Made by a program: the position numbers and the translations under genes. From Klebsiella phage N1M2: a stretch of 64,000 nt of DNA. This document shows, piece by piece, positions 22,579-39,635 of the stretch. Position 1 is the first letter of the stretch, and each line of letters opens with the position of its first letter. The notes beneath the pieces are model-generated. The model was not told where the DNA came from, made no database searches, and was given only the letters and a program-made list of their open reading frames with translations. The stretch lies in the sequence record MN642089.1, one strand, 5' to 3'.

Positions 22579-25500
22579 TTAACGAGGAGAAATGACTTTG
22601 AATGGTGCAGCGTAAGACTTGCTGTATTCAACGTCTATCTGTGTGATATCGGTCACATATGGCGTAGTCGGAGAAGCTGACTGCGTTAACGTGATGTCTA
22701 CAATATATTCACTTCTTCCTTTATAAGTGAACTTCAACTTGAACTTATGAATAACTTCTTCAGTAGAGTCGTTAGTGAATTTGTATCCGATAGTCTTATC
22801 ACTGAGAGTCCCGATGGTAACTGCTGGGTAATCAACGATTTGAATAATCAAATTCTCATCGGTGTTAGCCAATGCGGTCGAACCAAGGAGCACACTCTGA
22901 ATAAGAGTAGGTAACTCATAGTAGTTACCAGTTCCAGTAGTTTGGAAACCACTAGCCGGAGTGAGTTCCGTAGGTAGGATTTCAACCTTAGGTCTCAGGT
23001 CAATATAGTCAGAACCAATGTTACCGTTACCAGTATCATGGACAGACTTCAATCTGATCTTCAGGTCTCCATTACCAACATTCCCACCTGTTACTTTAAT
23101 TACTAAAGTCCCATCGCTACCTGGGCTCATGTTACCAAAGGTAATCAATCCAGCAGGAATAGAAATACTGCTTGACTTATCGAAAGTAACATTACCAACT
23201 AAAGGCTCGCCAGAGTAATCGCCTTTGATAGTGATGAATCCTTGTTCACCTGTCATCAGGATTACGTCATCAGCCGTTGCATTAATCTCTTTTCCGTTAT
23301 AACCATAAACAGTGAAAGTAACTTCTTGTTTGATGGTAAATGTAACGTTGTCCAGAGTAATATCAACTTCGAAGGTAGGCATTACTTTAGTAGTCTGAAC
23401 ATCAGCGTGACTAATTACCCATCCTTTATCTTTGATGCTCACGTATGAGTTATCAGAGATTCTCACGGCAGAAATCTGATCAGTTACATCATTACCTTTC
23501 CAATCCAATTTGAATGGCAGAGGTCCGCTCTCATTAATATGAGCAGTGATTTCTGATGTCAGATTAGTTACAGTTGGTTTAGGAACCGTAGATACCTGAG
23601 TAACTTTGAATGGTATTTTCAACTGACGGTCTGGCGGAATGTTAGTATCTTTATTCCAAGCCGCTACCACATCTGAGGTAAGTTCCCCAACATCAATGTC
23701 ATTAGCGAACTTAAACTGGAAGTATCCACCTGCGATGTAAGTTGTCGTCACAACGTTAGGTGTAAATACTGCCCTGTTAAAGTCTGTGGATAGGATACGA
23801 GCTTCATCAATGCCTTTCCTGTACTTGACATCCATTCTCATCACAGGCCCGCCAAACTGACCAGTAAACTCTTCTGGGTCGGCAGAGATCAGATAATAGC
23901 CATCGACATAGTACGTTTGAACTGGAACTTTCACATAAGTGAAATCCACGCCTTCCACTGCATCAGGGAGATACATTCTGGATTTAAGACCAACACAGAG
24001 GTAACCTTCTTGAGGTTCCTTCATATCAGTCGCTAGCGCTTGCCAGTTAAAGTAAATGTTTTTGGAGTTATTATCAGGACCTTGGTTATAGATGTTTTCA
24101 GCAAACCCTGGGAGCTTAGAACGAGCGGAGTCTATTTCAAATAGGCTATAATCGCTAATAGCTACTTTACGATATTCGCCTGAAACAGTACCGCGGAATA
24201 TAGCATTCGTTTGACCCATTATCCCGTTATTAAACTGGCTAGGGTTATTAAACTTAAAGCTCAGGGCTTGACCATCATACCCTTCGATGTTGAATACAAC
24301 ATCCTGTTCAATTTCCCAAACACGAGGACCCTGAACGACCGTAACAATAAATGTACCAGTCTTGGTAGTTGCTTCAGGTTCACCATCAATAACAGTATAG
24401 CCATCAGTGAGTTTAGGACCCATCTCCAACCAATCTTTATCTTTATCAGCTGCTTTGATATTAGTAACTGAAGAAGTATCGGCCGGATAATCCACACCAT
24501 CAATAGCTAGTTTAAATGGCAGACCTGTGTTCTTTTTCCAAACGCTCGTGTTAACTTCTTGAACATCTGTAACTGTAAGAACTGGATCTGTCGCACCTTC
24601 TTTAGCTTTGAAGATGATAGGTTGATCGTAACTAAAGGTATACTCTTTATTGTTGTTAGGGTTTTTGAATCTGATATTAAAAGTGAAGTAACTTGTAACA
24701 TCAGTAGCGCCAGGTTTAACAGCAGCTGGACTAATTTTGTAAGACTTAGCGGTCCAGTTGAATCGATTAGTCCCCTGAACATTAGATGCCCCAAAGAGTG
24801 TTGCGATACCTAGGTCGTGTGTTAGACCAACCGAGATAACTTCATTGGTTAGGTTGAGATTAACAGCAAGAGCACCCCAAACTAAATCGCACGGGACATC
24901 GACCACTGTCGTACTTCCGGCAGGGACAATGATAGGCTCAGGTACGAATCCTTCCCTGAAGGTAATTTTATCTTCGAACATATTCCAGATAACTGGCATG
25001 TTATCGAAGTTTTTACCAGGAGTGCCGGCAGGGTAACCGTTAGGTCCATTAGCCTCAGTACCATTATACTGTAATGGGACTTTACCTTTGTATTTACCCA
25101 ACTTGTCAGGTATCACCCTAACACTCACCTCATTGGCATTACTACCACCGCCAGAAGTCCAATGTATGGCTGTTGGATCTTCCGACTCAATACGGTTGAT
25201 TGTTGAATATCCAGACCGGTTTGTTCCAATAGGGTATGTTTTATTTTTCAACATTGCCCTAAAGAAGAAAGTGTAGAAGTTATTAGTGAAAGGTATGTTG
25301 ATAACGAAGCCATCACCTTCTTCCGTAATAACTGGTGCACTAACACCATTCTTGTTTACCGGTTCGCCCCAGAACTCAATCCCATCCCAAGCTGAGATAT
25401 TAACAGTTATCTTACCAGTAAGAACAACATTACCAGTAGATGCAGGAGTCGAGTATGTGAATTCTACTTCTACCGTCTTAGGTGTTGGGTCCGCATTTAT

Positions 25501-28500
25501 ACACTGTACAGTTGCACTTGGACCAGCTTCAAAGTAATTTGAACTGATCGCAGTGATACTACATTGTGTAGTAATATCGGTTTCACCACTAAAGACTTTG
25601 AATGGAGTGAATTTACCCCAAATATCGACATCCACAGGGTCGGTATTAGGTTCTAATCTCGGACCTTGGAAAGCCTTAAGTTGAACCTTACCACGTTGGT
25701 GCAGGTCATTGGTTCCATCATAACCCACGACATCCCAGACAAAGTTAAATACAGCAAAGAACGAATTAAGCCCTTTGTATTTAACCACCAGTTCATCTCC
25801 ATCAGGTTCGACAGAAAGAACTTCGAAGAAGGCGCTATTCTGAGTTTGTTCTTGATTCAATGTCAGAGCCGTAGTAGGTAAACCGCGGTTAGTCATTTTG
25901 AATCTCAACTCACCTTCTTTATCTTTGGTAAGTTCAAATGGATTCGGCGCGCCGGTACCTTGGATCCATCCAGCATGAGTAGGTCTAGAAGCTACTAGTG
26001 TTGTTAATTCTACATCAGGTATCTGTATCGTGGACCCTCTAAATGGAACCTCAATAACCCATGAAGTTCTAACATTATGGTTTCCGGTATTCCCGATGTA
26101 GTTATCAATACACCACATCCAGTCCTTGTTAGGATTTTCATCATCAGGAATGATGAGAATGCCTTGGGCGTCAGCATCCAATGTTTCCATACTCACTGGA
26201 GTACATTGAGTAGTTAGATCGGTACCGCCAACCATCACTTTAAAGATCTGAGGACCTCTAACCCTGTTGAATGGTTCAACACTAACTCTGATTGGTGTGA
26301 TTACCGGATAATCCGCAGGGACGACAATCTCAAATGGCTGAGTGTATTCACCAGTATGGGTTGTTCCAGTATTTGGGTCTGTATAACTCAAGGAAACTTT
26401 AATTTCCCGTTTACCCAATTCAGCATCGATAGGTGCGATGACCTCATACTGATACTGAGTTTGGTTAGATCCAGTGATCTTAATAATATCATCAGGATCA
26501 AGAGTTATTTTCAAGTCAGGGTTATCAAGTAGTATATTACGACCTCTGAGAGTGACTCTTAAAGGCATGTTACCTTTATCACCATTCCCGCCCTTAAGAC
26601 CAGCATTCCAACCAGTTACCAATAATGGAGGTTGTTTGAAATCCGCACCAATAACCAGACTACACCAATCCAGGAACTCAACACCAGGTTTAGCTCCACC
26701 AGGTCTTCTCAAGATGAGTTTGATATCACCTTTAAATTCCTTAGTAGGAGTTACACTATATCTGGCTCGCGCCTCAGACCCACCACCGATTGGACCAGTG
26801 AACTCAATATCCATCGCGTCACGGAAATCAGTTTCCAAATAGTCAATTATGTCAGTGTTGTTAAAGTTAGGGATTAACTTGTAAACAGTCTGCATATCAA
26901 CAGTTGTTACATCTCCCACTTCCATTACTAGAGGGTAGGTGTTATCAGGATAATGTTCAGGTGGATTTCTGTGCATCCAGAAGGACTCTAAAGTTCTCTG
27001 GTTCCAGGCTGCAATGTTGAACACCACATCAGCTTCACCTTTCCATGTCCAGTTACGGTAGATACCGTTATAGATCATTTTCAGTGTGAGTGACTTATTG
27101 GTCTCATCTGCTTTCACTACCGTAAAGCTACGGAGAGAAACAGTGATGTATCCATTAGGTTGTTCTTCATCTAATTCACAGTTCATCCAACCACTTTCAG
27201 CAGGAGCTGGAAGACTAGATGCTGTCAGTGAGACATCTCCACAAGTCGCCGATCCGATACCGAGGGATTGGGTATCAAACATCTTACATGCAACTGGAGA
27301 ACGAGGAACAACTACTACTGGTGCGGAAGTATACAGTTCAGGTATTTCTACTCTTCTGCTGTAATTATTTCCACCATAAGTATATGTGATGTTAATGAAG
27401 TCAGAAACTGTGATTTCACGTCCTGGGGCCACAACGCCTGCAAGAGAGTAATTGAATGATTCAGATTCCCAACTACCGATGCTGAGAACACCAGCGTTAG
27501 GAGAAGCACCTTCACCTTTCTCTACAGTTACCCGCAGACTACCATTAGCCATTTCCTGTTTAGCATCGATAGGAATCCCACCAAACAGAATCTGGAGTTT
27601 GTACTCTCCAGTGTCTCCGTCCTTACCAGTCAGCAGGTTATCACGATCACCGATCTCAACACCCAACTCACCCATAACTTTAGTCGGAACTTTACCAGTC
27701 CAAACGTCATAAGGAGCTGGATCTGTACCAGCAGCAGGAGACCAGAACACCAGGTCCATTTCCCCAAGCCCGGCTTCAACACCTTCAAAGGTCAATACGA
27801 AATCAACTCCATCCATCGAGCTACTAACGTATTTAACAGATTTAGGGAAAGTACTCAATTCAGGTTTGAATGTCGCACTTGCACCTACTTCCTTATCTTT
27901 GTAAATTGGGCGAACCTTCAGGGTATTTTGTTCACCAACAGCTGTTTCCAATTTATTAGGCGTGACGGTACATTTGAATCTAGTTGTATCCTGAGCACCT
28001 TGGATTCGGAATGTCGCATCAAACTCAAGTGACTGAACTTCTGGAACTTCATCTACCTTATACAGAACCTGCATCTTGATAGTCTTATCGCTCTGAACTT
28101 TCTCAGCGCCGATAATTTCCCAGCCACGTGGTGCGATGAACTCGACCCATTGGTTGTCCGGTTCGTTGGTCTTATAACCCTGAACAGTATTTAAAGGGTT
28201 ATCGCCCATTTTAATACCTTGAGTAAATGACCCACGATCCCAAATCTTACCGTTGATTGGATCGTTGTTCGTGATCTCTACTTTACCCATCTGGATACTA
28301 ACCTGGGTAGAAATCGTTCCTTCTTTAGGCGCAGGAGCACCAACTTCATAGGTGACTTTAATATCTTCAGGATAAACAGTCAAGGCTTCACTGACGTTAG
28401 AACGAATGGCCTGAATAACAACACCATTGCTAACTCCACCCACGATACGAATCGAGTGTGCTTTGCCATTATCTACCAGTTCATATTTCAGCCCTGGTGT

Positions 28501-31500
28501 ATTACCAGGAATTCCATATTCCCCATATTTAAGGGCCAGTACGATGGTTGCTGTTTCCATCCAAGGAATCGTAATCGCTGGGGTTTTGGATTCAACAGTA
28601 AAGACTTCATCAGAAGACTGAGTGATAACTTTAACTACGGCAACTGCATAGTCATCATTGACAACTGGCGGATTGGTAGCATTCTCTCTCACGAATACTA
28701 ATCTGAGAGTGTCTTCTGCTTGACCCAACAATGTGTAAGGTACATCACCATCTGGAGTGATCTCACCCAGTACGATGTTTTTAGGTATAGTACTCTTACC
28801 TAAATCAATACTTACATTCTTGGCAACATCACCGGCATACTTAAAGCGGAACTTCATTGTTCCAGGTGTACCAGCTTTACCTTCAACTTCTTCTGGACCT
28901 TCAGTGATAACGAATTTCTTACCGTCATATTTGGCGATATTGAAATCGGTTTCAGTATCCATCTGGTAGGTATTCCCACCCATGGAGTATTGAGCAGAAA
29001 GTCTCAGAGTGGTAGTAATGGAAGTAGATTGGCTACCGCCAGTAACGTACCATTTATTTGGTTCAGTGAAAGTGATATACGGGTTAGTTCCACGAGGAGT
29101 CAGACTTTCGATTGGAACAGGTCGACCTTGATCATCAACCAAAGTAATTCCAACGACGCCGCGATCCCATACGTTAACGTTAAATGAAGGGTTAGCTCCA
29201 ATTCTAACATCAGGAATATGGATGACTACCGGTACGGTATTTTCATTGGTCCAGGTTTTTCCATTAGGGTCAACGTACTCGACATTGATTTTGAAATCAT
29301 AGTCGTAGTCTTCGCCTTTCTCCCCACCTTTAGCAAGTTTAACAGTCAAGGACTCGTCATTGATCTTAACAAGTTCTACTGGCTCGCCATCACCTGAAGT
29401 GGCAGTGAGTTTTAACTTAGGATCATTCAGGGTTAATGGAATACCATCCCAGTTATAGACTAACTCGATAGTTGCTTCGGCATTCCAGATGCCTTTAACA
29501 GAAGGAGTGATCTTAACTAGGTTCAGTTCATGGGGCCATGCAATCTCAGTCGGAATATCAGCCTGGATCGTTCTACCACTTGGTGTGTGGCGATAGATCA
29601 GGGTCATTAAGTAATCACCACCACGAGTGGTTTCGTACCCAATAACTACACCTTCACCATCCACGTTAGAACTTACACCCATGATGAAAGTTTCTGGGAT
29701 AGTGGAAGCAGCTTTATCCACAACTACATCAGCGTTAGCCGGTTTACCTTTATAAACAAAGTTACCCGTTATTGTACCATTAGTTCTGGAATCTGCTTTG
29801 ATAGACTTAGGTTCCCAATCACCGCCGAAAGTGATCTGGTCCCAAGGCTCCAAATTAAAGACAACTTCAGTAATGAACTTGCGATCTTTAGCTTTGCCTA
29901 CGGTCCATTTAATTTCTAACGGAATCGTAATGGTGGTTGCTTCTTTCTCAGCCCAAATCACTTCCCAGTTAAGTTTATTGAAAGCAATATACTCATTATC
30001 CTGGATAGATTTGACGCTAGTAATCGCACCAGTCCAGTTGGTATTACCAGCCATGAGAGTGAAAGGCAATAGTCCAGTATCCCAAATAGCTGCATCGATA
30101 GGTGCGGCTGGGGTACCTTCTAAACGCATTTCTGGATATACAGTGAAGACAGGTAAAGTGAACTTAACGTTAGTTTGTTTACCGTCTCTTGGGTCTGTAT
30201 AGATGTACTCTAATTCCAAACCAGATTGACGAGTCTCACCGATGTATTCCCAAACGTTGTCAACAACCTCGACACCATTGTCTTTAACGTCAACGATACG
30301 GACGTTAGATTTGTCAGTACGCTTATACGTTAAGTTAGGATCGGTCAGTGGAACGACTTTACCAGCAAAGGTCAGAGTGATCTTAGCTAATGCTGAAGAA
30401 CCACCTACTTCAACTGTGGTTTCTTTATCGTAATCCTTAAGTACCAGTACACGAGACTGTTTAACGTCAGTGCTAACGTGAACAAGTGCGATATCTTCAG
30501 GTTTAGGATCTTCGATACCAGGGCGTTGAATATAAACTTTACCAGGCTCAGTAGTAGGTTGAAGTTTACTGTAGTTGGCACGAATAACATTTCGTTCTTC
30601 TATATAAACGAAAGAGTTGAAAGTAATCCCTGCTGGGGTTACTAACTTATCTTTCATTATTTCTGCTGTGGCGGTAATGTCTTCTGACAAGTGGTATACT
30701 TGGAATTCAAAGTAACCTGTTTCATCAGACAGACCGTCGATCAGTGCAGAAGAAGGAACGGCTACAGTTTTGGTGTTAATCCCAGGTTCTGTTGTACCAG
30801 GATCTTGTTCCCAAGCATTAACATTGAAAGTTTGATCGTAAGTAAACTGACGCCAAACACCATCAATAGTGTAACGGAACTTAAATGGAACTGTGGTGCT
30901 TTCTGCCGGAGCAGGAACATCTGGAGCATTACCAACGAACCATTGATCCGCATTACCTTTCTTAGGAATGATGAAACCTTTCTCATCTTCAAAAGTATAA
31001 TCACTAATTTTCTTAGTGACATCAACGCCGTTCACAATCAGTTTAAATGGATAGTCACCAAACTGATACTTATTAACCACGAGAGGGTTAGAGAGAACAG
31101 GAACCAGTTCAACTGTGGAGACCTGCGCTACAATTACACGGACCTTACGAGTGATGACGTATCTTACACCAGTTGGCGCAATCCAACGGAATACTTGATC
31201 ATAGTCATCTTCAATTTCTTCGCCGGGTTTGTTGGCGTCTTTGATGATGGTGTAATTAACACCTAACTGATCAACTGAATTATATTCGATCAGTTCTTTC
31301 TCACCTTTCTTACCTGTGCGGATATCAAGATCGGTAGGAGAAATAGGTTCATCATTATAAAAAGCACCAACAGTCAAAAGACCTTTATCGCCTTTATGAC
31401 CACGGATAACAGCTGGGAAACTACGAATCTCAAACTTAGGACCGGTATCTGGACGAGTAAGAACTACGTTCACATACGCCGGAGCTTTAGAAGTAATATC

Positions 31501-32706
31501 ACCTTCGTTATATACAAACTCAGCGGTATAGAGCCCACCGACTTGTTCAACGGTGTTCGGGAAGTTAGTGCTTAAATGACCTTCATAGATCATCGCGTCA
31601 TTTTCATCCCAGGTAGTAAACTTCATTGCACCGAAGTTACCTTGCTGGAGTAACGCAGATGGAGGAGCACTAATTCTTACCTTATTGCCTTTATAGAAAG
31701 CAGTGATCTTAACCTGTACATCTGAACCTGATGGCGCGGTAACGGTTTCTGGATCAATTACGAAAGTAAGATCGAAACTGTTATCCTTTTCGATAACCAC
31801 ATTGATTCTGAACGTTTTCTTAACAGGTCGACCTTGCCACATATAAGTGACACGCACGATGATCTCATCACGGACTTCTTTTTCAGAAGAACCATAAATG
31901 GTTTCACCAATGATGAAGTTTCCGTCTTCAGAACGTTTAGGAATGGTGTAACCAGAACCAGTACTGATTTCGATCAAAGCTTCATGTGTGATGTCAATAG
32001 TGGTGTTGAACCAATAGGTATTTGGAATACTGAAGTCTTTACCACGCTGGGTCGTAATGGACTCAGGAAGGTTAGAAGTAATTCCAGGAACATTGGCTTC
32101 ATCCAGAACTAATTCATAAATGAATAGTGGATAGGTTCCAGTACCAAATGAAGCATCAGTGATTTTAACTGTACCTGATTCGAGAGTATCGTAATCAATG
32201 AAAGTTAAAGATTCACGAGAGGTAACGTATTCATTAAAGAACAAATCACCAAAGGCAGCCATTGGACCACTGATGGTTTTTGCTTCTTCTTGAGAAAGCA
32301 GAACACCATAGTTATTAAGCCACTTACACCACAGTAAACCGTGATCTACTTTGTTGGCTTTAACGTAAGCTTTCAAGTTATCCAGGTCTTCGATCTCGAT
32401 CAATGGAACGGCGAAGTCTTCCAGGATATCTTTCATTTGTACACGAGTGATGTCGACGTCAACACGTGCAAAACCGGTTTTGCGCGCTGTAAAGCAAACG
32501 CGAGTAATACCATCAGGGAAAGCAACTGGGTTCTCAATAACTAAGTCACCAGCAACCAAACCTGTGTAACGTTCTTTAGCTAACGCCAACTCATCTTCAG
32601 GTCCTTCAACCTCAAGACGTTTTATACGTTCTTTCAAGAAACGTTCTACTGGTGTGTATAACGGATCGTTAATACACTTTTTGTTAATCTTAATTTGCTC
32701 TGCCAT
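22579..32706 (-). CDS. giant structural fibre/adhesin-like protein with tandem Ig-like domains, 3375 aa
   Basis: 10.1-kb uninterrupted ORF. AAGAGG RBS. Many ~90-110 aa beta-rich repeats. The N-terminal ~200 aa has a standalone paralog at 44725..45330. Confidence 0.75.
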   Translation of the reverse strand: MAEQIKINKKCINDPLYTPVERFLKERIKRLEVEGPEDELALAKERYTGLVAGDLVIENPVAFPDGITRVCFTARKTGFARVDVDITRVQMKDILEDFAVPLIEIEDLDNLKAYVKANKVDHGLLWCKWLNNYGVLLSQEEAKTISGPMAAFGDLFFNEYVTSRESLTFIDYDTLESGTVKITDASFGTGTYPLFIYELVLDEANVPGITSNLPESITTQRGKDFSIPNTYWFNTTIDITHEALIEISTGSGYTIPKRSEDGNFIIGETIYGSSEKEVRDEIIVRVTYMWQGRPVKKTFRINVVIEKDNSFDLTFVIDPETVTAPSGSDVQVKITAFYKGNKVRISAPPSALLQQGNFGAMKFTTWDENDAMIYEGHLSTNFPNTVEQVGGLYTAEFVYNEGDITSKAPAYVNVVLTRPDTGPKFEIRSFPAVIRGHKGDKGLLTVGAFYNDEPISPTDLDIRTGKKGEKELIEYNSVDQLGVNYTIIKDANKPGEEIEDDYDQVFRWIAPTGVRYVITRKVRVIVAQVSTVELVPVLSNPLVVNKYQFGDYPFKLIVNGVDVTKKISDYTFEDEKGFIIPKKGNADQWFVGNAPDVPAPAESTTVPFKFRYTIDGVWRQFTYDQTFNVNAWEQDPGTTEPGINTKTVAVPSSALIDGLSDETGYFEFQVYHLSEDITATAEIMKDKLVTPAGITFNSFVYIEERNVIRANYSKLQPTTEPGKVYIQRPGIEDPKPEDIALVHVSTDVKQSRVLVLKDYDKETTVEVGGSSALAKITLTFAGKVVPLTDPNLTYKRTDKSNVRIVDVKDNGVEVVDNVWEYIGETRQSGLELEYIYTDPRDGKQTNVKFTLPVFTVYPEMRLEGTPAAPIDAAIWDTGLLPFTLMAGNTNWTGAITSVKSIQDNEYIAFNKLNWEVIWAEKEATTITIPLEIKWTVGKAKDRKFITEVVFNLEPWDQITFGGDWEPKSIKADSRTNGTITGNFVYKGKPANADVVVDKAASTIPETFIMGVSSNVDGEGVVIGYETTRGGDYLMTLIYRHTPSGRTIQADIPTEIAWPHELNLVKITPSVKGIWNAEATIELVYNWDGIPLTLNDPKLKLTATSGDGEPVELVKINDESLTVKLAKGGEKGEDYDYDFKINVEYVDPNGKTWTNENTVPVVIHIPDVRIGANPSFNVNVWDRGVVGITLVDDQGRPVPIESLTPRGTNPYITFTEPNKWYVTGGSQSTSITTTLRLSAQYSMGGNTYQMDTETDFNIAKYDGKKFVITEGPEEVEGKAGTPGTMKFRFKYAGDVAKNVSIDLGKSTIPKNIVLGEITPDGDVPYTLLGQAEDTLRLVFVRENATNPPVVNDDYAVAVVKVITQSSDEVFTVESKTPAITIPWMETATIVLALKYGEYGIPGNTPGLKYELVDNGKAHSIRIVGGVSNGVVIQAIRSNVSEALTVYPEDIKVTYEVGAPAPKEGTISTQVSIQMGKVEITNNDPINGKIWDRGSFTQGIKMGDNPLNTVQGYKTNEPDNQWVEFIAPRGWEIIGAEKVQSDKTIKMQVLYKVDEVPEVQSLEFDATFRIQGAQDTTRFKCTVTPNKLETAVGEQNTLKVRPIYKDKEVGASATFKPELSTFPKSVKYVSSSMDGVDFVLTFEGVEAGLGEMDLVFWSPAAGTDPAPYDVWTGKVPTKVMGELGVEIGDRDNLLTGKDGDTGEYKLQILFGGIPIDAKQEMANGSLRVTVEKGEGASPNAGVLSIGSWESESFNYSLAGVVAPGREITVSDFINITYTYGGNNYSRRVEIPELYTSAPVVVVPRSPVACKMFDTQSLGIGSATCGDVSLTASSLPAPAESGWMNCELDEEQPNGYITVSLRSFTVVKADETNKSLTLKMIYNGIYRNWTWKGEADVVFNIAAWNQRTLESFWMHRNPPEHYPDNTYPLVMEVGDVTTVDMQTVYKLIPNFNNTDIIDYLETDFRDAMDIEFTGPIGGGSEARARYSVTPTKEFKGDIKLILRRPGGAKPGVEFLDWCSLVIGADFKQPPLLVTGWNAGLKGGNGDKGNMPLRVTLRGRNILLDNPDLKITLDPDDIIKITGSNQTQYQYEVIAPIDAELGKREIKVSLSYTDPNTGTTHTGEYTQPFEIVVPADYPVITPIRVSVEPFNRVRGPQIFKVMVGGTDLTTQCTPVSMETLDADAQGILIIPDDENPNKDWMWCIDNYIGNTGNHNVRTSWVIEVPFRGSTIQIPDVELTTLVASRPTHAGWIQGTGAPNPFELTKDKEGELRFKMTNRGLPTTALTLNQEQTQNSAFFEVLSVEPDGDELVVKYKGLNSFFAVFNFVWDVVGYDGTNDLHQRGKVQLKAFQGPRLEPNTDPVDVDIWGKFTPFKVFSGETDITTQCSITAISSNYFEAGPSATVQCINADPTPKTVEVEFTYSTPASTGNVVLTGKITVNISAWDGIEFWGEPVNKNGVSAPVITEEGDGFVINIPFTNNFYTFFFRAMLKNKTYPIGTNRSGYSTINRIESEDPTAIHWTSGGGSNANEVSVRVIPDKLGKYKGKVPLQYNGTEANGPNGYPAGTPGKNFDNMPVIWNMFEDKITFREGFVPEPIIVPAGSTTVVDVPCDLVWGALAVNLNLTNEVISVGLTHDLGIATLFGASNVQGTNRFNWTAKSYKISPAAVKPGATDVTSYFTFNIRFKNPNNNKEYTFSYDQPIIFKAKEGATDPVLTVTDVQEVNTSVWKKNTGLPFKLAIDGVDYPADTSSVTNIKAADKDKDWLEMGPKLTDGYTVIDGEPEATTKTGTFIVTVVQGPRVWEIEQDVVFNIEGYDGQALSFKFNNPSQFNNGIMGQTNAIFRGTVSGEYRKVAISDYSLFEIDSARSKLPGFAENIYNQGPDNNSKNIYFNWQALATDMKEPQEGYLCVGLKSRMYLPDAVEGVDFTYVKVPVQTYYVDGYYLISADPEEFTGQFGGPVMRMDVKYRKGIDEARILSTDFNRAVFTPNVVTTTYIAGGYFQFKFANDIDVGELTSDVVAAWNKDTNIPPDRQLKIPFKVTQVSTVPKPTVTNLTSEITAHINESGPLPFKLDWKGNDVTDQISAVRISDNSYVSIKDKGWVISHADVQTTKVMPTFEVDITLDNVTFTIKQEVTFTVYGYNGKEINATADDVILMTGEQGFITIKGDYSGEPLVGNVTFDKSSSISIPAGLITFGNMSPGSDGTLVIKVTGGNVGNGDLKIRLKSVHDTGNGNIGSDYIDLRPKVEILPTELTPASGFQTTGTGNYYELPTLIQSVLLGSTALANTDENLIIQIVDYPAVTIGTLSDKTIGYKFTNDSTEEVIHKFKLKFTYKGRSEYIVDITLTQSASPTTPYVTDITQIDVEYSKSYAAPFKVISPR

Positions 32707-32819: not shown

Positions 32820-35636
32820 TTATTTAGTTTTCAAATCAATAACTAATGGATAGTAAAGTGGGTCAGGTGAAGGGAATCTGAATTTAGCATCTGCATAATA
32901 AGAAGTTCTTCTTTTCTTATCTGCAATAACCTCAACATATCCAATACCTGTTTGACGGTCATAAATAAGATCGATTGTTCTTACTTTCGTGTTGATATTG
33001 TTCTTGAAGAAATCATCAATACGAATGAACTTAGGATTCTTACCACTGGCATCTTTAAACTGCCACTTGTAAACTAATGTTCCCGACTTGGTAAACTCAT
33101 GACCTAAATAAGAAGCTGTTGCTGCAGGAGCATAATACTGCTGTCCTGTTTTAGCTTCGACAGTTAGCGAAGTACCAATCACTCTCACTTCAAAATTCAC
33201 ATCGAAAGGCATAACACCATTAACATCTTTCAATGGGAGTGTGTGGGTAATGATACCAGTTTTATCATTATAAATGAAGTTACTGGCTTCTTTGGTAAGA
33301 TTGTTTATTTTAACACCGGCACTAGAAGGTCGAGTCGATCTCAGTTGGTAACTAAGAACTAAGTCGCCATTCTTAAGTTCATAACCTAAGTACTCAACGT
33401 TAACTTTCAGTTTAGGTTCTTCAGTGTGAAGTAATTTGAACCATTGATCGTGAACACCATCCTCAGTTTCTATTCTGAGTTTAATATCCAGTCCGTAGTT
33501 TAGCTTGGCGTCCTGGTTATATTCACAATCAACGGCAAAGTTGAGATTACCAGTTTCTGGATCATAGCTTTCAGAACGACGGAGGTTTGAGATCCCCTTT
33601 ACATTCTCACCCAAAACAACAGAAGTTATTTTAACAGAAGGTGGGATTTCCCCGTTCTTAAGTATGACACCTAAGTTAAAGTTAAGTGAGTTCTTAATCA
33701 CACTAATGGCGTTAGTTTTCAATGAAACCGGAAATGAATCAGACCCGAATGTAGTAGACGATTCGAAATCGTATTCTGGGTTATCTCTGTAACCAGCCAG
33801 GTAGACCTTTCCTTTAAGGGTATGGGTTTCTTTGAAGCCGGTGGTTTCTACTTTGGTCAATATAGTCAATCGACCATTATGATAACCAGATTTAATGATT
33901 CCAGTGGATTTACCATTAACTTCAACTTTATTACTAACCATTACCATATTGGCAGGCGATGAGCCATCTTCAAACTTAGGTTCGAATACAGCCTTTTCAA
34001 TACCACCAATGACGGTATGTTCAATCACAGTAAAATCAATCTTACCTTCATCGGTAGGGATATTAATGTAATCCACAGTCTTGATATGAAGTGGTATTTT
34101 TCTTAGCACATTAGTTTTCACTAAAGCAGTACCAATCAACTCTACTTCTACAGCTTCTTCTTTCTGTTCATTCAGAATAAAGAATCCATTAACAATGTTG
34201 GGGTTCGTATCGTGTTTTTGAACGACATTGTTACTAGAAGGAATACGGTTGATCAACAAGCACAGTGAAGTGGCATCGATAGACACTATCTTCTCATTAG
34301 AAACCAGTGAGAAACTATAATCCATTCTGTCGGATTCATTTCTTATAATCGCCTCATTAAAGATGGCAATTGGTTTAGCCGTAGCTTCAACAAACCAAGG
34401 AACCATTTTATTATCGATAATGAAATGACCACGAAGGTTATAATGAAGTTCTCTACTGTTATCCACTACGACTTCCCAGGTAGCGATAAATTCATTACTA
34501 CCTTCAATCCAATTCAATCTTGGAGCAGCTGACCCGATTAAATGACTAACGAAGTCTGCTGGAGGAACGTGTAGATTCTGGAGAAGATAATTGGAATCTT
34601 CCTTTGAGGTTACCTTAAACCGAGCTTGAAGTGTATTATCTCCTAAGGTGGTAGAGATTAATTCTGCCTTATATGTAGATTGATGGTCATAATCCACAGA
34701 CAGATTAAAATCGATAGGTGGATAATTTTCACCTTTGGCTTTGGTAATAAAATTGTAATTCAACGTACCTTCTGGGATAACCCCCACCACTATATCGAAC
34801 TCGTATAGACCAGTGCGAGGATCGTAATTGATACTGTTAGGTTTTACAATACCAGTTGGAACATTATTGCCATATAGGAAAGGTGTCTCAAGAGAGAATG
34901 AACTCGGTGGTAGATTGGTATCAGCCCACTTAACTTCCATCATTACACGCAATGTTCTTTCTTTGAGAACTTTACTAATAACTTTATAGTTGATTGTTTT
35001 AGTTCTTTCTAGTCGACCATTGAAAGAAACTACAGTTCCAGGTTGGTCAGGTAAGGATCTTACTTCCGAACTATATTCCATATCAGCATACATAGCTCTG
35101 CTCTTAGCCTGGTAGGTCGCCACCAATATACCATCGATAGGATTATAAGTTTGCGTTAGTACTTTGTTACTAATCAGGTTACCTGTTGGCTTAGCTTCAT
35201 TATCCAAGCAGGCGAACTCAGGGATCTTCCCATTGGTTCTTTCTACTTTTAATGTCACTATCAGTTTATCGTCATGGAATCTAAATGAGGACGACTTGAT
35301 TAGTAAAGCCGGTTCTGGGATTCTGAGTTCTTCAGAATGTTCAAAAGGTGTTGAATATTTCTCACCTTCTATGATGTAACTTCCTTTGACTTTAAAAGGA
35401 ACATCCACATCTGGGTTTGTTTCCGGTTCTACTTTGAACACTGTTCTGTAAGTACCGGTATTTAAATCGTAACCTTGAGAAACCGGATCACCATCTAAAC
35501 CAATTACATTATTAAGGAAAACCCGTTTAGGATAACCACCCCTTGTATAACGAACAACGTGTTCTATAACTAGGTGATCAAACCCTTCTCTTTTTATTCC
35601 TCCACTAAGATATATAGTGGTTGGGTGATCGATCAT
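32820..35636 (-). CDS. large structural protein, 938 aa
   Basis: GGAGG RBS. Beta-rich. Upstream of the giant gene on the same strand. Confidence 0.65.
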   Translation of the reverse strand: MIDHPTTIYLSGGIKREGFDHLVIEHVVRYTRGGYPKRVFLNNVIGLDGDPVSQGYDLNTGTYRTVFKVEPETNPDVDVPFKVKGSYIIEGEKYSTPFEHSEELRIPEPALLIKSSSFRFHDDKLIVTLKVERTNGKIPEFACLDNEAKPTGNLISNKVLTQTYNPIDGILVATYQAKSRAMYADMEYSSEVRSLPDQPGTVVSFNGRLERTKTINYKVISKVLKERTLRVMMEVKWADTNLPPSSFSLETPFLYGNNVPTGIVKPNSINYDPRTGLYEFDIVVGVIPEGTLNYNFITKAKGENYPPIDFNLSVDYDHQSTYKAELISTTLGDNTLQARFKVTSKEDSNYLLQNLHVPPADFVSHLIGSAAPRLNWIEGSNEFIATWEVVVDNSRELHYNLRGHFIIDNKMVPWFVEATAKPIAIFNEAIIRNESDRMDYSFSLVSNEKIVSIDATSLCLLINRIPSSNNVVQKHDTNPNIVNGFFILNEQKEEAVEVELIGTALVKTNVLRKIPLHIKTVDYINIPTDEGKIDFTVIEHTVIGGIEKAVFEPKFEDGSSPANMVMVSNKVEVNGKSTGIIKSGYHNGRLTILTKVETTGFKETHTLKGKVYLAGYRDNPEYDFESSTTFGSDSFPVSLKTNAISVIKNSLNFNLGVILKNGEIPPSVKITSVVLGENVKGISNLRRSESYDPETGNLNFAVDCEYNQDAKLNYGLDIKLRIETEDGVHDQWFKLLHTEEPKLKVNVEYLGYELKNGDLVLSYQLRSTRPSSAGVKINNLTKEASNFIYNDKTGIITHTLPLKDVNGVMPFDVNFEVRVIGTSLTVEAKTGQQYYAPAATASYLGHEFTKSGTLVYKWQFKDASGKNPKFIRIDDFFKNNINTKVRTIDLIYDRQTGIGYVEVIADKKRRTSYYADAKFRFPSPDPLYYPLVIDLKTK

Positions 35637-35670
35637 ACTTCCTCCGATATCGATACTGTTTGGACATAGA

Positions 35671-35696
35671 ATCTGATAAAGAGTCCCTGGACGAAC
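35671..35696 (-). terminator. hairpin GAGTCCCTGG-ACGAAC-CCAGGGACTC (attenuator/terminator between structural genes)
   Basis: Perfect 10-bp stem in the 78-bp gap between the 245-aa and 938-aa genes. Confidence 0.45.
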
Positions 35697-35714
35697 CCAG
35701 GGACTCTAATATCA

Positions 35715-36452
35715 TTAAGGTTCTATAACTAACGTGGTTCTGACACTACGTGAGCTGCATTTAACATCGGCATTACTAAACCATACTTCATAGTTAGTGC
35801 TGCTTTTGTTAGCAACATATGTGGTAAAGGTCACTGTTTTCTCATCAATGATCTTAGCGTCTCTGATCCAGTTAAATGTATTGGATCTCCCAGCAGCCTC
35901 ACTATACGTATAGTCTCGTTGTACAACCAACTTGTCTGATGTTATACCATCCTCAGGAAGTTTGACTGTCCACACCCCCAGGTTTCTTTCTTTGTCATAG
36001 ACAACTGAAACTTCGCCTGGGCCAACAGGAATATAATCGAATTCTGTTCTAGACGTATACTCAACACCGTCAGCTAATATAACTATATTAGTGGCCGCGC
36101 TATCTGGCTTATTGACGATATTTATATGAGCACGCAGACTGGTTTCTCCAAAGAGACCGTTTTCTCTCTTCCTTATTTTTAACGGACCAGTACCGCCCCA
36201 GATACCGGGCTCAAATCCTTTTACTTCCCACTCATTAATATAGGTAGTATTCCCTTTCTCATCAATGACTCTGAATGTTCCAAGTACTGAAGATTTGACC
36301 ATGTTATCCCATTCGGTAACTAGTTGGTTACCTCCTGTATACCCATAGCGCTGTTCAAATAAGATTGCAGGTCTACCCATATAACCATTGACCGCTCCAA
36401 ATGAAAATAATAACTGTTTTAAGTCAACAATGTGACCATAGGATCCGAACAT
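35715..36452 (-). CDS. structural-module protein, 245 aa
   Basis: First gene of the minus-strand structural run. Preceded by a UUCG hairpin. Confidence 0.55.
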   Translation of the reverse strand: MFGSYGHIVDLKQLLFSFGAVNGYMGRPAILFEQRYGYTGGNQLVTEWDNMVKSSVLGTFRVIDEKGNTTYINEWEVKGFEPGIWGGTGPLKIRKRENGLFGETSLRAHINIVNKPDSAATNIVILADGVEYTSRTEFDYIPVGPGEVSVVYDKERNLGVWTVKLPEDGITSDKLVVQRDYTYSEAAGRSNTFNWIRDAKIIDEKTVTFTTYVANKSSTNYEVWFSNADVKCSSRSVRTTLVIEP

Positions 36453-36453
36453 A

Positions 36454-36481
36454 GAGTAGGGTGGCTTCGGCCACCCTACTC
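36454..36481 (-). terminator. hairpin GAGTAGGGTGGC-TTCG-GCCACCCTACTC (UUCG tetraloop)
   Basis: Perfect 12-bp stem between the HNH stop (36495) and the 245-aa gene start (36452). Confidence 0.55.
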
Positions 36482-36494
36482 ATTATGATCTTAA

Positions 36495-37310
36495 TTAAAG
36501 TTCGAAGTCATTGAATGCGCCTTCTGCAACATTGGAATCGATTTGACCTACCAGGTAAGAACTAACCAAAGATTGTTTATCATGGGAGAAAGCCCAGCCA
36601 TTAACAATCTTCTTTCCATTAGATTTTAGAGCACGCCCTATCGATCTCCTAGATATTCCCAAGATTCCAGCACATTCATGGCTCGATTTGAATAACACGA
36701 GTTCAGTCCTGTCACTTATCTCAAGACCATAGAACATTTTACTTGTTCTGGTTCCGCTGTTATTAACTGAAAGTCCCTCTAATGTTATTTTCCATGTGTG
36801 GTCTAATAAAGTATCTTTATATTTATTGACAATCATTGTGCCTGAGACATTGGGAGTTCCAGCCCATCTTGATAGTTCTCGCAGAGAGTGTAGAGTGATG
36901 ACTTTTCCTGTCTTTACATTCTCTATCTTTATATGTTGGCTTGCTTTATTAAGTCCTGTCTTATATGCATGGAAGATGTTATCTGAATTGGTAGTCCATT
37001 CAAGATTGCTCTTAGTGCAGTCTAATTTATTACCATTAATGTGATTACAAGTTATTAGTTTGCAACCTTCTGGAAGATCTGGCCTTGGGCCATTAAATAT
37101 GGAACACACGGTGACATGAATAGTTATATAAGCCTGAACACCATAATCAGAGACGAGATTAACTGAACGATATCCATTACGGAGAAGGTCTTTCATTTTA
37201 AATTGGTCTTTCTTTCTCCTAACATCACCATTTTCATTTATCTCATAATTAGAGAACCCAGGTATGATTATCCAATTATCTTTATTATCCATGAATACCT
37301 CATGCCCCAT
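36495..37310 (-). CDS. HNH homing endonuclease (NUMOD4-like N-term) with C-terminal NrdB-tail duplication
   Basis: WIIIPGFSNYEINENGDVRR is the NUMOD4-like segment. CNHINGNKLDCTKSNLEWTTNSDN is the HNH motif. The last 26 aa ([22 protein letters not shown]) mirror the NrdB C-terminus. Confidence 0.8.
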   Translation of the reverse strand: MGHEVFMDNKDNWIIIPGFSNYEINENGDVRRKKDQFKMKDLLRNGYRSVNLVSDYGVQAYITIHVTVCSIFNGPRPDLPEGCKLITCNHINGNKLDCTKSNLEWTTNSDNIFHAYKTGLNKASQHIKIENVKTGKVITLHSLRELSRWAGTPNVSGTMIVNKYKDTLLDHTWKITLEGLSVNNSGTRTSKMFYGLEISDRTELVLFKSSHECAGILGISRRSIGRALKSNGKKIVNGWAFSHDKQSLVSSYLVGQIDSNVAEGAFNDFEL

Positions 37311-37332
37311 TTACCCAATTGGGTAAATGGGG
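37305..37332 (-). promoter_or_regulatory. 28-nt perfect palindrome CCCCATTTACCCAATTGGGTAAATGGGG enclosing the HNH start codon (translational sequestration hairpin)
   Basis: Read directly from the sequence. AUG lies in the 3' arm of a 12-bp stem with an AAUU loop. Confidence 0.6.
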
Positions 37333-37343
37333 ATGTTGTTTAT

Positions 37344-38489
37344 TTACAGACTAAAATCCGCAAAGTCATCAGTGTCGACTGTTGAATCAATTTGCCCCAC
37401 AAGATAGGAGCTGATCTCAGCCTCCTGTGGGGCCACCTGAACGTTGTCAGACACCAACCAGGAGTTAATCCATGGGATTGGGTTAGTGGTAGTTGTAAAT
37501 GGCATACCGAGCCCGATAGCGTTCATACGGATGTTCGCAATGTATTCAACATACTGGCACAGGATCGGCTCTGACAGACCAATCATAGAACCATCTTTAA
37601 ACAGGTATGCTGCCCATTCTTTTTCTTGCTGTACAACTTCCAAGAACATGTCGATTGATTCTTGTTTGCATTCTTCAGCAATTTCAGCCATCTCTGGATC
37701 ATCAGCACCATTTGCAAACAGATTCAGGATATGCTGAGTGCCAGTAAGGTGGAGAGCCTCATCACGTGCGATGAGTTTGATGATCTTAGCATTACCTTCC
37801 ATCAGCTTACGTTCTGCGAATGCAAACGAGCAAGCGAATGATACATAGAAACGAATAGCTTCCAGGGCGTTAACTGATTGAATACACAGATAAAGCGCTT
37901 TCTTAATCTCACGCAGGGTAACGACAACACGTTTACCATTAACAGTGTGAGTACCTTCACCCAGGTAATAATACTGCTGGGTTAAAGCAATCAGTTTATC
38001 GTAGTAACGGGACACCGCACCAGCACGACGGGTGATGTGTTCGTTATCCACAACATCTTCAAACACGATAGAAGGATCGTTAACGATGTTACGGATGATG
38101 TGGGTATAGGAACGAGAGTGAATCGTTTCTGAGAAGCCCCAGGTCTCTGCCCATGTTTCCAGTTCTGGAATACTGATAATCGGAAGGAAGGCTACGTTAG
38201 GCCCACGACCCTGTACGGAATCCAGAAGCGTCTGATATTTGAGGTTACTGATGAAGATATGCTTTTCATGTTCCGGAAGGTTCATGTAGTCAATACGGTC
38301 ACGAGTAACGTCAACTTCTTCAGGACGCCAGAAGAAAGACAGTTGCTTTTCAATAAGCTTTTCAAAGATACCGTGCTTTTGTTGGTCATAACGAGAAACG
38401 TTAACGTTCTGACCCATGAACATGTGTTCTAACAGTTGGTTGTTTTTATTTTGGTTAAAAGTTGAATAGCCGGACATGTTTAACTCCAA
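37344..38489 (-). CDS. nrdB: ribonucleotide reductase class Ia beta subunit
   Basis: 381 aa. Near-colinear high identity to enterobacterial NrdB, recalled from memory ([54 protein letters not shown]-terminal [20 protein letters not shown]). Confidence 0.9.
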
Positions 38490-38700
38490 GTAAGATTTGT
38501 TTAAGATGTTTGCACTTAGCTAATAATTATTACTCGGATAAAAGATTAAAGTTAGGCTAAAATAAATTCTTAATGAAAGACACTATCATACGTTAACTTA
38601 AACATGTTTTCACCGAAAGGTGGGAGGGAAAGGGTGGATATGTTTATATAGCGATTACGTAGTAATCATCCTTTAAAGTCTTTGGCCTTTGGTTCCAAAT

Positions 38701-38730
38701 CTTTTCAGGTAGATATTATTAAAGTGAAGT
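38701..38730 (+). promoter_or_regulatory. early promoter-like motif (CTTTTCAGGTAGATATTATTAAAGTGAAG)
   Basis: Near-identical to the copy at 49691-49720. 50 bp upstream of 38781. Confidence 0.5.
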
Positions 38731-38780
38731 TAGTACCTTAATTTAAATTTGTTGTGTGTTAAACTTTTGAAGGATTTAAA

Positions 38781-39635
38781 ATGAAAACTATTTTAGCTAT
38801 TGTAATTATGCTGTTTTCTCTTTCTTCTTTTGCTGAGGTTGATTACAGTAAAGAAGCGATGGATGCTCGTTGTGGTGATGGCCAGGAAATGATCTATTGG
38901 AATAAGATCGCTAAGACAGGTGCCGAAGTTAAAGTGTGCTTGAATGGGGATATGGTTTCTGGTGGCTTCTATATGCCTGATGGTGATGATATGGTTTACA
39001 CCTCACCATTGATACTAACCCATGTTCAAGTAACCAAAGACTATGAAGCAGTGATCGTTCAGAACTTACCTATGGCTTTCCGCTTCCAGCATAAGTATGA
39101 TGGTCGTGCTGATTATGCATACTTATTCGACATGGGTACAGAATCTGAAAACTCCCGACCTGTTGCTCTGGATCCTACCTTAGCGTATTCTAATATCATT
39201 GGACTGCGTGAAGCTAAACGTGGAACCTTCAGTATCGACCCTGTAAAGCCTGTAGAGAAGAAAGTTAAGACTACCCAGGAGAATACTCAGATCAAAACTT
39301 CTGATGCGGTAGGTGATCGCTGTGCTCCTGGTGATATCGTATTCTACGGTAAAACTGTGAAGGGTAATAAAGAAGTACTGGTTTGTCGTTGGAATGATAA
39401 TGTCTTTTATCGCTTTGGTAAAATCGGTAAGAAACCAGATATGGATTTAAAAGAAGACATTTCTAATATTGGTGTTGCTAACGAACTGGTCAGCATTCCA
39501 AATGGAGATGTTTATTATCACACTGGTTATGAGGATGGGCGTGAAGTTCTGATTGTTTCCCGCGGTAAAGACACATTAGCAACGATCGATCTTGATCAAC
39601 GCAGTGTTGTAAATAATATCAAAGCTTTATTCTAA
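38781..39635 (+). CDS. secreted protein with internal two-fold repeat
   Basis: MKTILAIVIMLFSLSSFA is the signal peptide. Repeats DARCGDGQEMIYWNK..EVKVC and GDRCAPGDIVFYGK..EVLVC. Confidence 0.55.
   Translation: MKTILAIVIMLFSLSSFAEVDYSKEAMDARCGDGQEMIYWNKIAKTGAEVKVCLNGDMVSGGFYMPDGDDMVYTSPLILTHVQVTKDYEAVIVQNLPMAFRFQHKYDGRADYAYLFDMGTESENSRPVALDPTLAYSNIIGLREAKRGTFSIDPVKPVEKKVKTTQENTQIKTSDAVGDRCAPGDIVFYGKTVKGNKEVLVCRWNDNVFYRFGKIGKKPDMDLKEDISNIGVANELVSIPNGDVYYHTGYEDGREVLIVSRGKDTLATIDLDQRSVVNNIKALF

Follow-up and report, generated by a model that had tools for sequence, protein, structure and literature searches.

We analysed a stretch of 64,000 nucleotides from Klebsiella phage N1M2 (MN642089.1; hereafter the window), in which a gene for a predicted HNH homing endonuclease lies directly behind nrdB, the gene for the class Ia ribonucleotide reductase (RNR) beta subunit. 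N1M2 is a 253-kb jumbo phage; in the phage collection, the records nearest to it are from Petsuvirus members, namely the Serratia phages Yubaba and Sureiya and Edwardsiella phage pEt-SU. All features of the locus are on the minus strand. nrdB (37344..38477) looks complete and functional, with a Pfam Ribonuc_red_sm match at E = 1.3e-46. Its open reading frame (ORF) is listed as 37344-38489, with a TTG at 38489, and the likely start is the ATG at 38477, as in Yubaba. The protein combines the Ribonuc_red_sm domain with a C-terminal tail that can be aligned to that of E. coli and includes the Tyr356 equivalent and an acidic/hydrophobic end, which together place it in class Ia.

nrdB terminates at its own stop codon ahead of the HNH gene. 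Its last 22 codons and stop, which we call tail A (37344..37412), carry the signature TCC TAT CTT GTG GGG, common to N1M2 and to L006, L007, L008 and L169 (L numbers are our labels for the sequences compared). A hairpin with a perfect 12-bp stem, CCCCATTTACCCAATTGGGTAAATGGGG (37304..37331; fold -26.9 kcal/mol, z = -4.2), is found between the nrdB stop and the HNH start, just 5' of a GAGG ribosome-binding site. The HNH ORF that follows is listed as 36495-37310. It likely starts at the ATG at 37292 after the GAGG (36495..37292), in agreement with the deposited 265-aa protein N1M2_165, to which the predicted product is 100% identical. The I-HmuI-like part of this protein extends to about NGWAFSHDKQSL and is followed, in frame, by another 22 codons of NrdB type and the old nrdB stop (tail B, 36495..36563), with the 'native' codons TAC CTG GTA GGT. 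Tail B now forms the HNH C terminus. Downstream of this HNH::tail B fusion, a terminator-like hairpin, GAGTAGGGTGGCCGAAGCCACCCTACTC (36454..36481; fold -29.2 kcal/mol, z = -5.7), occupies the position of the hairpin that follows the nrdB stop in Yubaba and Sureiya. The order at the locus is thus nrdB body, tail A with its stop, HNH, tail B.

The initial annotation had described the two C termini as one peptide family that has diverged synonymously. Both peptides are present, and the codons that it cited (AGC TCC TAT CTT GTG GGG for nrdB, AGT TCT TAC CTG GTA GGT for the HNH ORF) are correct. Tails A and B share 15 of 22 residues and only 36 of 66 nucleotides, with a longest exact run of 5 nt; synonymous divergence (pS) is ~1.1 and nonsynonymous divergence (pN) 0.26. 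Different codons encode 13 of the 15 conserved residues, compared with 9.1 expected from random draws on the window's own codon usage (P = 0.026). BLASTP of the nrdB ORF against the HNH ORF gave E = 2e-6, with an alignment extending to both stop codons. No other pair among the 195 window ORFs of 60 aa or more shared a C-terminal peptide (E = 8.5e-6 for this pair). A DNA-level repeat search of the window did not detect the tail pair, at 55% identity, and the duplication is visible only in protein. A larger capture of nrdB, raised by a BLASTP match upstream of the tail (VNGWAFS.D..Q), was rejected, as tail-less HNH relatives also conserve the NGW.F / NGY.I motif.

Which of the tails belongs to the invaded genome can be read from relatives with and without the HNH gene. 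Yubaba has an intact nrdB followed by the terminator hairpin and the next gene, and no HNH gene. Global alignment of N1M2 with Yubaba opens one large gap of 849 bp, at 36568..37416 of the window, which comprises tail A, the stop, the hairpin spacer and the HNH ORF without a stop of its own. The edges of this insert are ambiguous by ~4 nt owing to a repeat, and 36564-37412 is equally valid. Similarly, L007, a Sureiya-like phage, differs from Sureiya by one clean 818-bp insert, and Simmy50 from Desertfox by a single 959-bp insert, such that the HNH gene is present or absent at one locus in three pairs of collinear relatives. In all three comparisons, native sequence restarts at the Ser-Ser-Tyr codons. 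These alignments place the insertion point directly before the radical-transfer tyrosine codon (E. coli Tyr356, SS|YLVGQID), 21-22 codons ahead of the stop.

In N1M2, tail B runs on into the terminator and the downstream GGATCCTATGGTCA motif, as in the HNH-less Yubaba and Sureiya. Tail B of L007 is identical to the Yubaba native tail at 66 of 66 positions, and to that of Sureiya at 63 of 66; that of Simmy50 matches the Desertfox native tail at 63 of 66. The N1M2 copy is more diverged, with 48 of 66 positions identical to Yubaba. Because native-type sequence resumes at the Ser-Ser-Tyr codons and continues through the shared terminator and motif, tail B is best identified as the resident nrdB 3' end of the invaded genome.

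Tail A behaves differently. N1M2 tail A is identical to the Yubaba tail at only 38 of 66 positions (0.58), to L007 tail A at 0.62 and to L006 tail A at 53 of 66 (0.80), while the N1M2 nrdB body is closest to those of Yubaba, Sureiya and L007 (0.85-0.88) and less so to that of L006 (0.76). The HNH proteins follow the order of tail A, N1M2 being 72% identical to L006 and 62-64% to L007. As the functional tails disagree with their own nrdB bodies and track HNH identity, the data identify tail A as a part of the mobile unit, a donor-derived and synonymously recoded nrdB 3' end imported with the HNH gene. Across phages, the A and B members of a pair share 36-44 of 66 nucleotides and 15-16 of 22 amino acids. 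N1M2 nrdB is composite by the same comparison, with a resident body of the Yubaba/Sureiya type, 85% identical in nucleotides to Yubaba nrdB until ~37416-37423, and 22 imported codons at its end. We also considered a longer co-conversion tract on the left of the N1M2 insert and rejected it, since sliding identity is highest to Yubaba until the last ~100 nt; the imported left tract is essentially tail A alone by this measure. The exchange was larger in Simmy50. Its flanks are ~97% identical to Desertfox upstream of nrdB and 97-100% downstream, and between them the entire nrdB has been swapped, with ~73-80% identity to the Desertfox gene. Co-conversion of flanking target sequence is therefore seen both in the grouping of tail A with the HNH lineage and in the whole-gene exchange of Simmy50.

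The proposal that an endonuclease had invaded the 3' end of nrdB, leaving one donor and one recipient tail, is strongly supported by these relatives, with tail A from the donor and tail B from the recipient. Alignment of nrdB 3' ends with and without the HNH gene, which had been suggested as a check, mapped the insertion point and gave tail A as the co-converted tract of the 849-bp insert. A tail-bearing HNH gene located away from nrdB would speak against an nrdB origin of the segment; all those found adjoin nrdB. The N1M2 sequence alone would fit the opposite polarity equally well, in which HNH and tail B were imported together behind an intact resident nrdB, so that tail A is native and tail B foreign. 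This is very improbable, given that tail B, terminator and motif match the HNH-less relatives (66/66 for L007 against Yubaba, 63/66 for Simmy50 against Desertfox) and that tail A, at odds with the body of its gene, clusters with tails from other HNH-bearing phages. Replication slippage, for its part, can yield direct repeats that flank an insert, and the nrdB 3' end might have been duplicated in tandem in the N1M2 lineage, with an HNH gene landing independently between two drifting copies. However, synonymous sites are saturated between tails A and B (pS ~1.1), even though the nrdB body differs from that of Yubaba by only 15%. Moreover, layout and junction recur in different phage genera, with resident tails that match the local HNH-less alleles. 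We give a local duplication hardly any credence, even less than the reversed polarity.

We determined how widely this arrangement occurs. Close relatives of the HNH protein are rare, with 7 proteins among 5.8 billion, whose contigs were fetched. A HMMER search of 1.84 billion cluster representatives gave 5 matches at E <= 1e-30, including one (P0009/L176) that added an nrdB-linked HNH gene without a displaced tail, and the Erwinia Agricanvirus phages were found by tblastn. IMG/VR and JGI metagenome scans, together with a scan of IMG/VR for exact TCCTATCTTGTGGGGCARAT, returned only Erwinia phage RAY and distant HNH genes among the matches listed. In every case with upstream DNA, the HNH gene is directly downstream of nrdB, except in the Desertfox group, in which a 38%-identical HNH relative is directly upstream.

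Five lineages (N1M2, L006, L007, Simmy50 and L173) carry a second, displaced tail. In N1M2, L006 and L007, this tail continues the HNH reading frame. In Simmy50, the displaced tail is at L004 3819-3887 and the HNH TAA overlaps the junction, leaving the tail out of frame; in L173, the HNH TAA is followed by CC and then by the displaced tail, also out of frame. L008, L169 and L176 have HNH proteins with C termini of their own and no second tail. The genes 3' of the cassette differ between phages: a 245-aa ORF in N1M2, a 1035-aa one in Yubaba and L007, one of 716 aa in L006, and gp93 in Simmy50. From these comparisons, the locus is a recurrent, structured cassette rather than a one-off scar. The initial annotation had called it a molecular fossil of invasion; the invasion stands, and the word fossil undersells a cassette that recurs.

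The Erwinia phages carry both arrangements. Simmy50 (L004 1795-3887) has a foreign nrdB allele, tail A, HNH and a relic tail; in Desertfox (L005 2992-4978), the related HNH gene precedes the resident nrdB. The 'reversed gene order' published for Erwinia jumbo phages (PMC6690015) thus corresponds, at the level of sequence, to two competing endonuclease/nrdB cassettes.

N1M2_165 itself is identified by sequence and model as a free-standing, I-HmuI-like HNH homing endonuclease. Residues 65-111 match Pfam HNH_3 (PF13392) at 25.6 bits, above the cut-off of 24.8; NUMOD4 (PF07463), with a cut-off of 23.4, fell short at 20.5 bits (E = 5.6e-4). An alignment of 8 family members shows no variation at the His and Asn positions of the HNH_3 region. 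I-HmuI (1U3E) was the sole significant match in the PDB, with a sequence E value of 0.0035 and ~18% identity. It was also the only Foldseek match in the PDB at E <= 0.001 (E = 1.4e-8, probability 1.00), with low TM-scores (0.32/0.47), as expected for a flexible multi-domain protein. The AlphaFold2 model (mean pLDDT 76.9) is confident except in the linkers and the tail. Besides short linkers, it shows a beta-rich HNH region at the N terminus and, towards the C terminus, a pair of short helices (204-211 and 215-223), taken by analogy with I-HmuI to be a DNA-binding helix-turn-helix. HNH homologues cease aligning at query residues 236-238, after GW.F..D..L, beyond which their own C termini differ.

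A hairpin between the nrdB stop and the HNH start was found in all six cassettes examined for it (N1M2, L006, L007, L008, L169 and Simmy50), with z from -3.4 to -6.1. The hairpin sequences are unrelated, and their position is alike. By analogy, this fits the hairpin/terminator control of T4 mobE. An Rfam E-value scan of 35500-39000 revealed no intron and no match to RF00028, a model powerful enough to detect the nrdB intron of L008 at 69 bits. The reading of the locus as a group I intron or an intein was rejected, as at E <= 1 the same region gave only chance microRNA/snoRNA matches on the hairpin. At the other end of the cassette, the GGATCCTATGGTCA motif is located at 36433-36446 (minus strand), just past the terminator hairpin (36454-36481). 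It is conserved in N1M2, Yubaba, Sureiya and L007, with variants in L006, L173, L008 and L169, and could serve the gene downstream as a phage promoter. ORF 35715-36452, whose predicted start overlaps the motif, may be over-extended.

The differences between functional and native tails are concentrated at the Y-L-V-G codons. HNH-linked functional tails read TAT CTT GTG GGG (N1M2, L006, L007, L008 and L169) or TAT TTA GTN GGT (Simmy50 and L176). TAC/TAT CTG GTN GGT is found in the HNH-less Yubaba, Sureiya and Desertfox, in E. coli, and in tail B of N1M2, L006, L007, Simmy50 and L173; pEt-SU, also HNH-less, reads TAC TTG GTG GGT. The Leu codon is CTT or TTA in 7 of 7 HNH-linked functional tails and CTG or TTG in 10 of 10 HNH-less or displaced copies, such that its third base parts the two groups, 7 versus 10, with no exception. 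Five cassettes have kept the exact run TCCTATCTTGTGGGGCA, although their HNH proteins are only ~50% identical, and neighbouring synonymous sites (Gln, Ile, Ser) vary among them. We infer that the recoded Y-L-V-G codons are the footprint of a recognition site, under selection against return to a cleavable sequence, and that the recoding would shield functional tails from cleavage. It would be needed because a copy of the right half-site in the cassette, beside an intact left half, would rebuild the element's own target.

We consider it likely that the N1M2 locus is an I-HmuI-like HNH cassette inside the nrdB coding sequence that carries a recoded replacement for the last 22 codons. In co-infection, the enzyme would nick or cut an HNH-less nrdB at or near the sequence coding for SSYLVG, and repair would copy the cassette from the HNH-bearing genome, using the nrdB body for homology on the left and, on the right, the conserved tail together with downstream sequence. 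nrdB would stay whole because the cassette supplies its own last 22 codons and stop in tail A; their loss would remove the NrdA-binding tail. Both tails would be protected from the enzyme, tail A by recoding at the Y-L-V-G codons and tail B by lacking the upstream half of the site, which HNH sequence has replaced. The anatomy of the locus, the edges of the insert, the origin of each tail, the recurrence in other phages and the endonuclease family are observed in the sequences; enzyme activity, cut position, immunity by recoding and neutrality of the fusion are the predicted parts of this scheme.

L008, L169 and L176 may represent a simpler state from which the cassette arose. In all three, the HNH gene follows the nrdB terminator region and precedes the next gene, and recoding of the nrdB tail is already in place. 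This would imply that the target is in the nrdB tail and the insertion point ~70-100 bp away from it, the usual situation for free-standing endonucleases. If such an element invaded a phage with unrelated downstream DNA, the 3' end of HNH might be joined to the broken end at the cleavage site, giving the duplicated-tail form. Both homology arms of this form would lie within nrdB, and it could then move whatever genes follow nrdB.

Several points weigh against this scheme. Few relatives are known, and the closest HNH-less relative compared with N1M2 is at 85% identity. The target site and the role in immunity are drawn from 17 sequences that are not phylogenetically independent. N1M2 tail B retains a 'sensitive' right half-site in the same genome, and the model thus needs the enzyme to depend on the upstream half-site as well. 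Lastly, the tails B of N1M2 and L006 have kept frame, stop and NrdB-like character (pN/pS ~0.2 versus Yubaba), which could reflect selection on the chimera or recent displacement.

The in-frame fusion of HNH to tail B is probably a by-product of how the element is built. In-frame fusions (N1M2, L006 and L007) are limited to one HNH clade, and as the ORF of that clade has no stop, the fusion arises automatically on insertion, tail B of L007 being untouched native sequence. An intact tail B would likewise indicate recency rather than selection, since the untranslated displaced tails of Simmy50 and L173 are equally intact. The pN/pS of ~0.2 between N1M2 tail B and Yubaba is also obtained for tail A of N1M2 versus L006 and for the untranslated L173 tail B, and most of the divergence of tail B may predate its displacement.

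The initial annotation had raised the possibility that the fused tail targets the HNH protein to NrdA or competes with NrdB. Binding to NrdA is physically plausible and has no comparative support, and we regard it as improbable. A functional tail kept by selection, which would dock the endonuclease on phage or host NrdA or inhibit NrdA-NrdB assembly, would account for the in-frame fusion in three cassettes whose HNH proteins have diverged to 62-72% identity, for the full SSYLVGQID...F..F.L pattern of tail B, and for its pN/pS of ~0.2 against Yubaba. The last 18 residues of the HNH ORF, most of tail B, are predicted to be disordered (pLDDT < 50), as expected of a docking peptide, and R2 C-terminal peptides inhibit class I RNRs. 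Nevertheless, the three in-frame cases belong to one HNH clade and hence to one event. L007, with its 66/66 native tail, is too recent for selection to have acted and indicates that insertion alone makes the fusion; the displaced tail is untranslated yet as intact in Simmy50 and L173, and absent from L008, L169 and L176. Homing endonucleases are also usually made at very low levels. On balance, a selected function of the tail is therefore very unlikely. It is less far-fetched, though unlikely, that the N1M2 cassette has the architecture proposed and is a dead relic, its HNH no longer active or mobile. The divergence of N1M2 tail B from all known native tails (48/66 to Yubaba) suggests an insertion older than that of L007, and the NUMOD4 match is under the Pfam cut-off. 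On the other hand, the 265-aa ORF is intact, the HNH_3 His and Asn are invariant across the family, the model is confident outside the linkers and tail, and a relative, L007, was invaded very recently.

If the tail were functional, the nuclease would be tethered to the large RNR subunit, or a co-infecting competitor handicapped, or homing coupled to nucleotide metabolism. Regarding the potential partner, Pfam analysis of window ORFs of 450 aa or longer found no nrdA, and the 60 best phage tblastn matches of E. coli NrdA included neither a Petsuvirus nor an Agricanvirus. The N1M2 paper names NrdB only (PMC7058600). The NrdB tail of N1M2 is very E. coli-like, and the N1M2 protein may be an orphan that uses host NrdA as its partner.

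The closest parallels to the N1M2 element are in fungal mitochondria. Mobile endonuclease ORFs (mORFs) form 'gene hybrids' of atp6, atp9, cox2 and nad3 in Glomus sp. (Beaudet et al. 2013, PMC3630166), and an atp6 'gene hybrid' formed by an mORF in Allomyces macrogynus is cited in the same paper. In Endoconidiophora, C-terminal duplications of atp6 and cob are found beside endonuclease ORFs (PMC6279837). As in the mORF cases, an essential gene receives, together with an endonuclease ORF inserted close to its 3' end, a foreign C-terminal segment that is in phase. The native C terminus is displaced downstream and matches endonuclease-less relatives in nucleotides, the imported copy is diverged in DNA and conserved in protein, and the relative reading frames of the ORFs differ among cases. 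The mORFs of this kind found in the literature are LAGLIDADG or GIY-YIG elements of fungal mitochondria, whereas N1M2 is a double-stranded DNA jumbo phage with an I-HmuI-like HNH enzyme and nrdB as the target. Also unlike in mORFs, the endonuclease rather than the host gene carries the displaced piece as a fusion at its end, and recoding in the phage cassettes is concentrated at a defined block of 4 codons. The N1M2 element works like the mORF class and is not a member of those element families.

Among phage elements, T4 MobE is a free-standing HNH endonuclease that nicks nrdB of T2, and its gene is promoterless with hairpin/terminator control (Wilson & Edgell 2009, PMC2790892); HNH endonucleases of the MobE type act as nickases (PMC2988022). 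Both MobE and N1M2_165 are encoded by free-standing HNH genes adjoining an RNR gene, and MobE is inherited together with flanking markers. In contrast with N1M2, T4 MobE is upstream of nrdB and acts near the nrdB 5' end, with no duplication or fusion, and the likeness is by HNH family only. In Aeromonas phage Aeh1, mobE resides in a 'genes-in-pieces' nrdA (Friedrich et al. 2007, as cited in PMC2988022). Going by that citation, Aeh1 resembles N1M2 in having an HNH gene within an RNR coding sequence with RNR function kept, and differs in that nrdA is split into two polypeptides that reassemble, whereas N1M2 nrdB is unsplit and is supplied with a replacement 3' end. A true split of nrdB, of the Aeh1 type, is present in Sureiya, L007 and L176 and involves a different HNH protein. 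N1M2_165 shares with I-HmuI (PDB 1U3E), the intron-encoded nicking endonuclease of Bacillus phage SPO1, an N-terminal HNH and an extended multi-module architecture. Unlike I-HmuI, which is encoded in an intron of a DNA polymerase gene, it is free-standing, ~90 residues longer, and ends with a foreign NrdB peptide.

No phage description of such a cassette was found in the full-text literature searched. Neither an HNH nor a homing endonuclease is mentioned in the N1M2 paper (PMC7058600), the Erwinia Agricanvirus paper reports only that the HNH/RNR order is 'reversed' in some phages (PMC6690015), and a T4 mobile-DNA review does not mention duplication. Homing endonuclease genes are known to enter conserved genes without killing them within introns, within inteins or by split-and-reassemble arrangements, and the N1M2 locus adds a fourth way in phages, a recoded spare copy. 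The spare-copy strategy has already been described for fungal mitochondria; the N1M2 case differs in its setting in a phage, the HNH enzyme and the fusion to the endonuclease. In the engineered 'home-and-rescue' or cleave-and-rescue drives of insects, Cas9 is the nuclease that targets an essential gene, and it is accompanied by a recoded, cleavage-resistant copy of the part of that gene that it cuts. The N1M2 element is similar in design logic, and it is natural, protein-guided and found in a phage.

The model predicts that the target is the SS|YLVGQ codons around the radical-transfer tyrosine, and that immunity is conferred by four synonymous positions in TAC CTG GTA GGT. The gene that would contain both homology arms is conserved from E. 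coli to jumbo phages, which may explain the spread across Klebsiella, Serratia-type and Erwinia phages despite their different downstream genes. The present label of N1M2_165, 'hypothetical', can be replaced by HNH homing endonuclease with a chimeric C terminus.

A second hot spot is located in the middle of nrdB, at KLIAR|DEALH. A different HNH protein of 210-220 aa, annotated as 'winged helix-turn-helix', splits nrdB there into two ORFs in Sureiya (L002 4127-6221), L007 (3787-5881) and L176 (2-1548). At the same site, L008 (5240-5478) carries an ORF-less group I intron (RF00028, 69 bits for a gathering score of 50). The nrdB genes of N1M2 and Yubaba are uninterrupted at this position. The mid-gene HNH region of L007 (4504-5437) differs from that of Sureiya by 2 mismatches in ~930 nt, compared with 57 in ~1030 nt for the flanking nrdB halves, which suggests that the mid-gene endonuclease swept recently across diverged nrdB alleles.

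Elsewhere in the window, very large minus-strand ORFs lie downstream of the nrdB region, at 22579-32706 (3375 aa) and 17938-22557 (1539 aa). ORFs of 938 and 722 aa near these two had no Pfam match, and L006, L008 and L169 have genes of more than 3500 aa at the same relative position as the giant ORFs of N1M2. On the plus strand, 53086-54645 encodes a 519-aa product whose match to the Cpn60/TCP-1 family (E = 4.8e-15) suggests a phage GroEL-like chaperonin. Lastly, the cluster representatives included a 4998-aa protein (P0010) in which 13 separate stretches match the N-terminal part of the HNH query (E = 3.3e-46); it may represent a giant protein with repeats, or else a prediction that is mis-assembled or concatenated.

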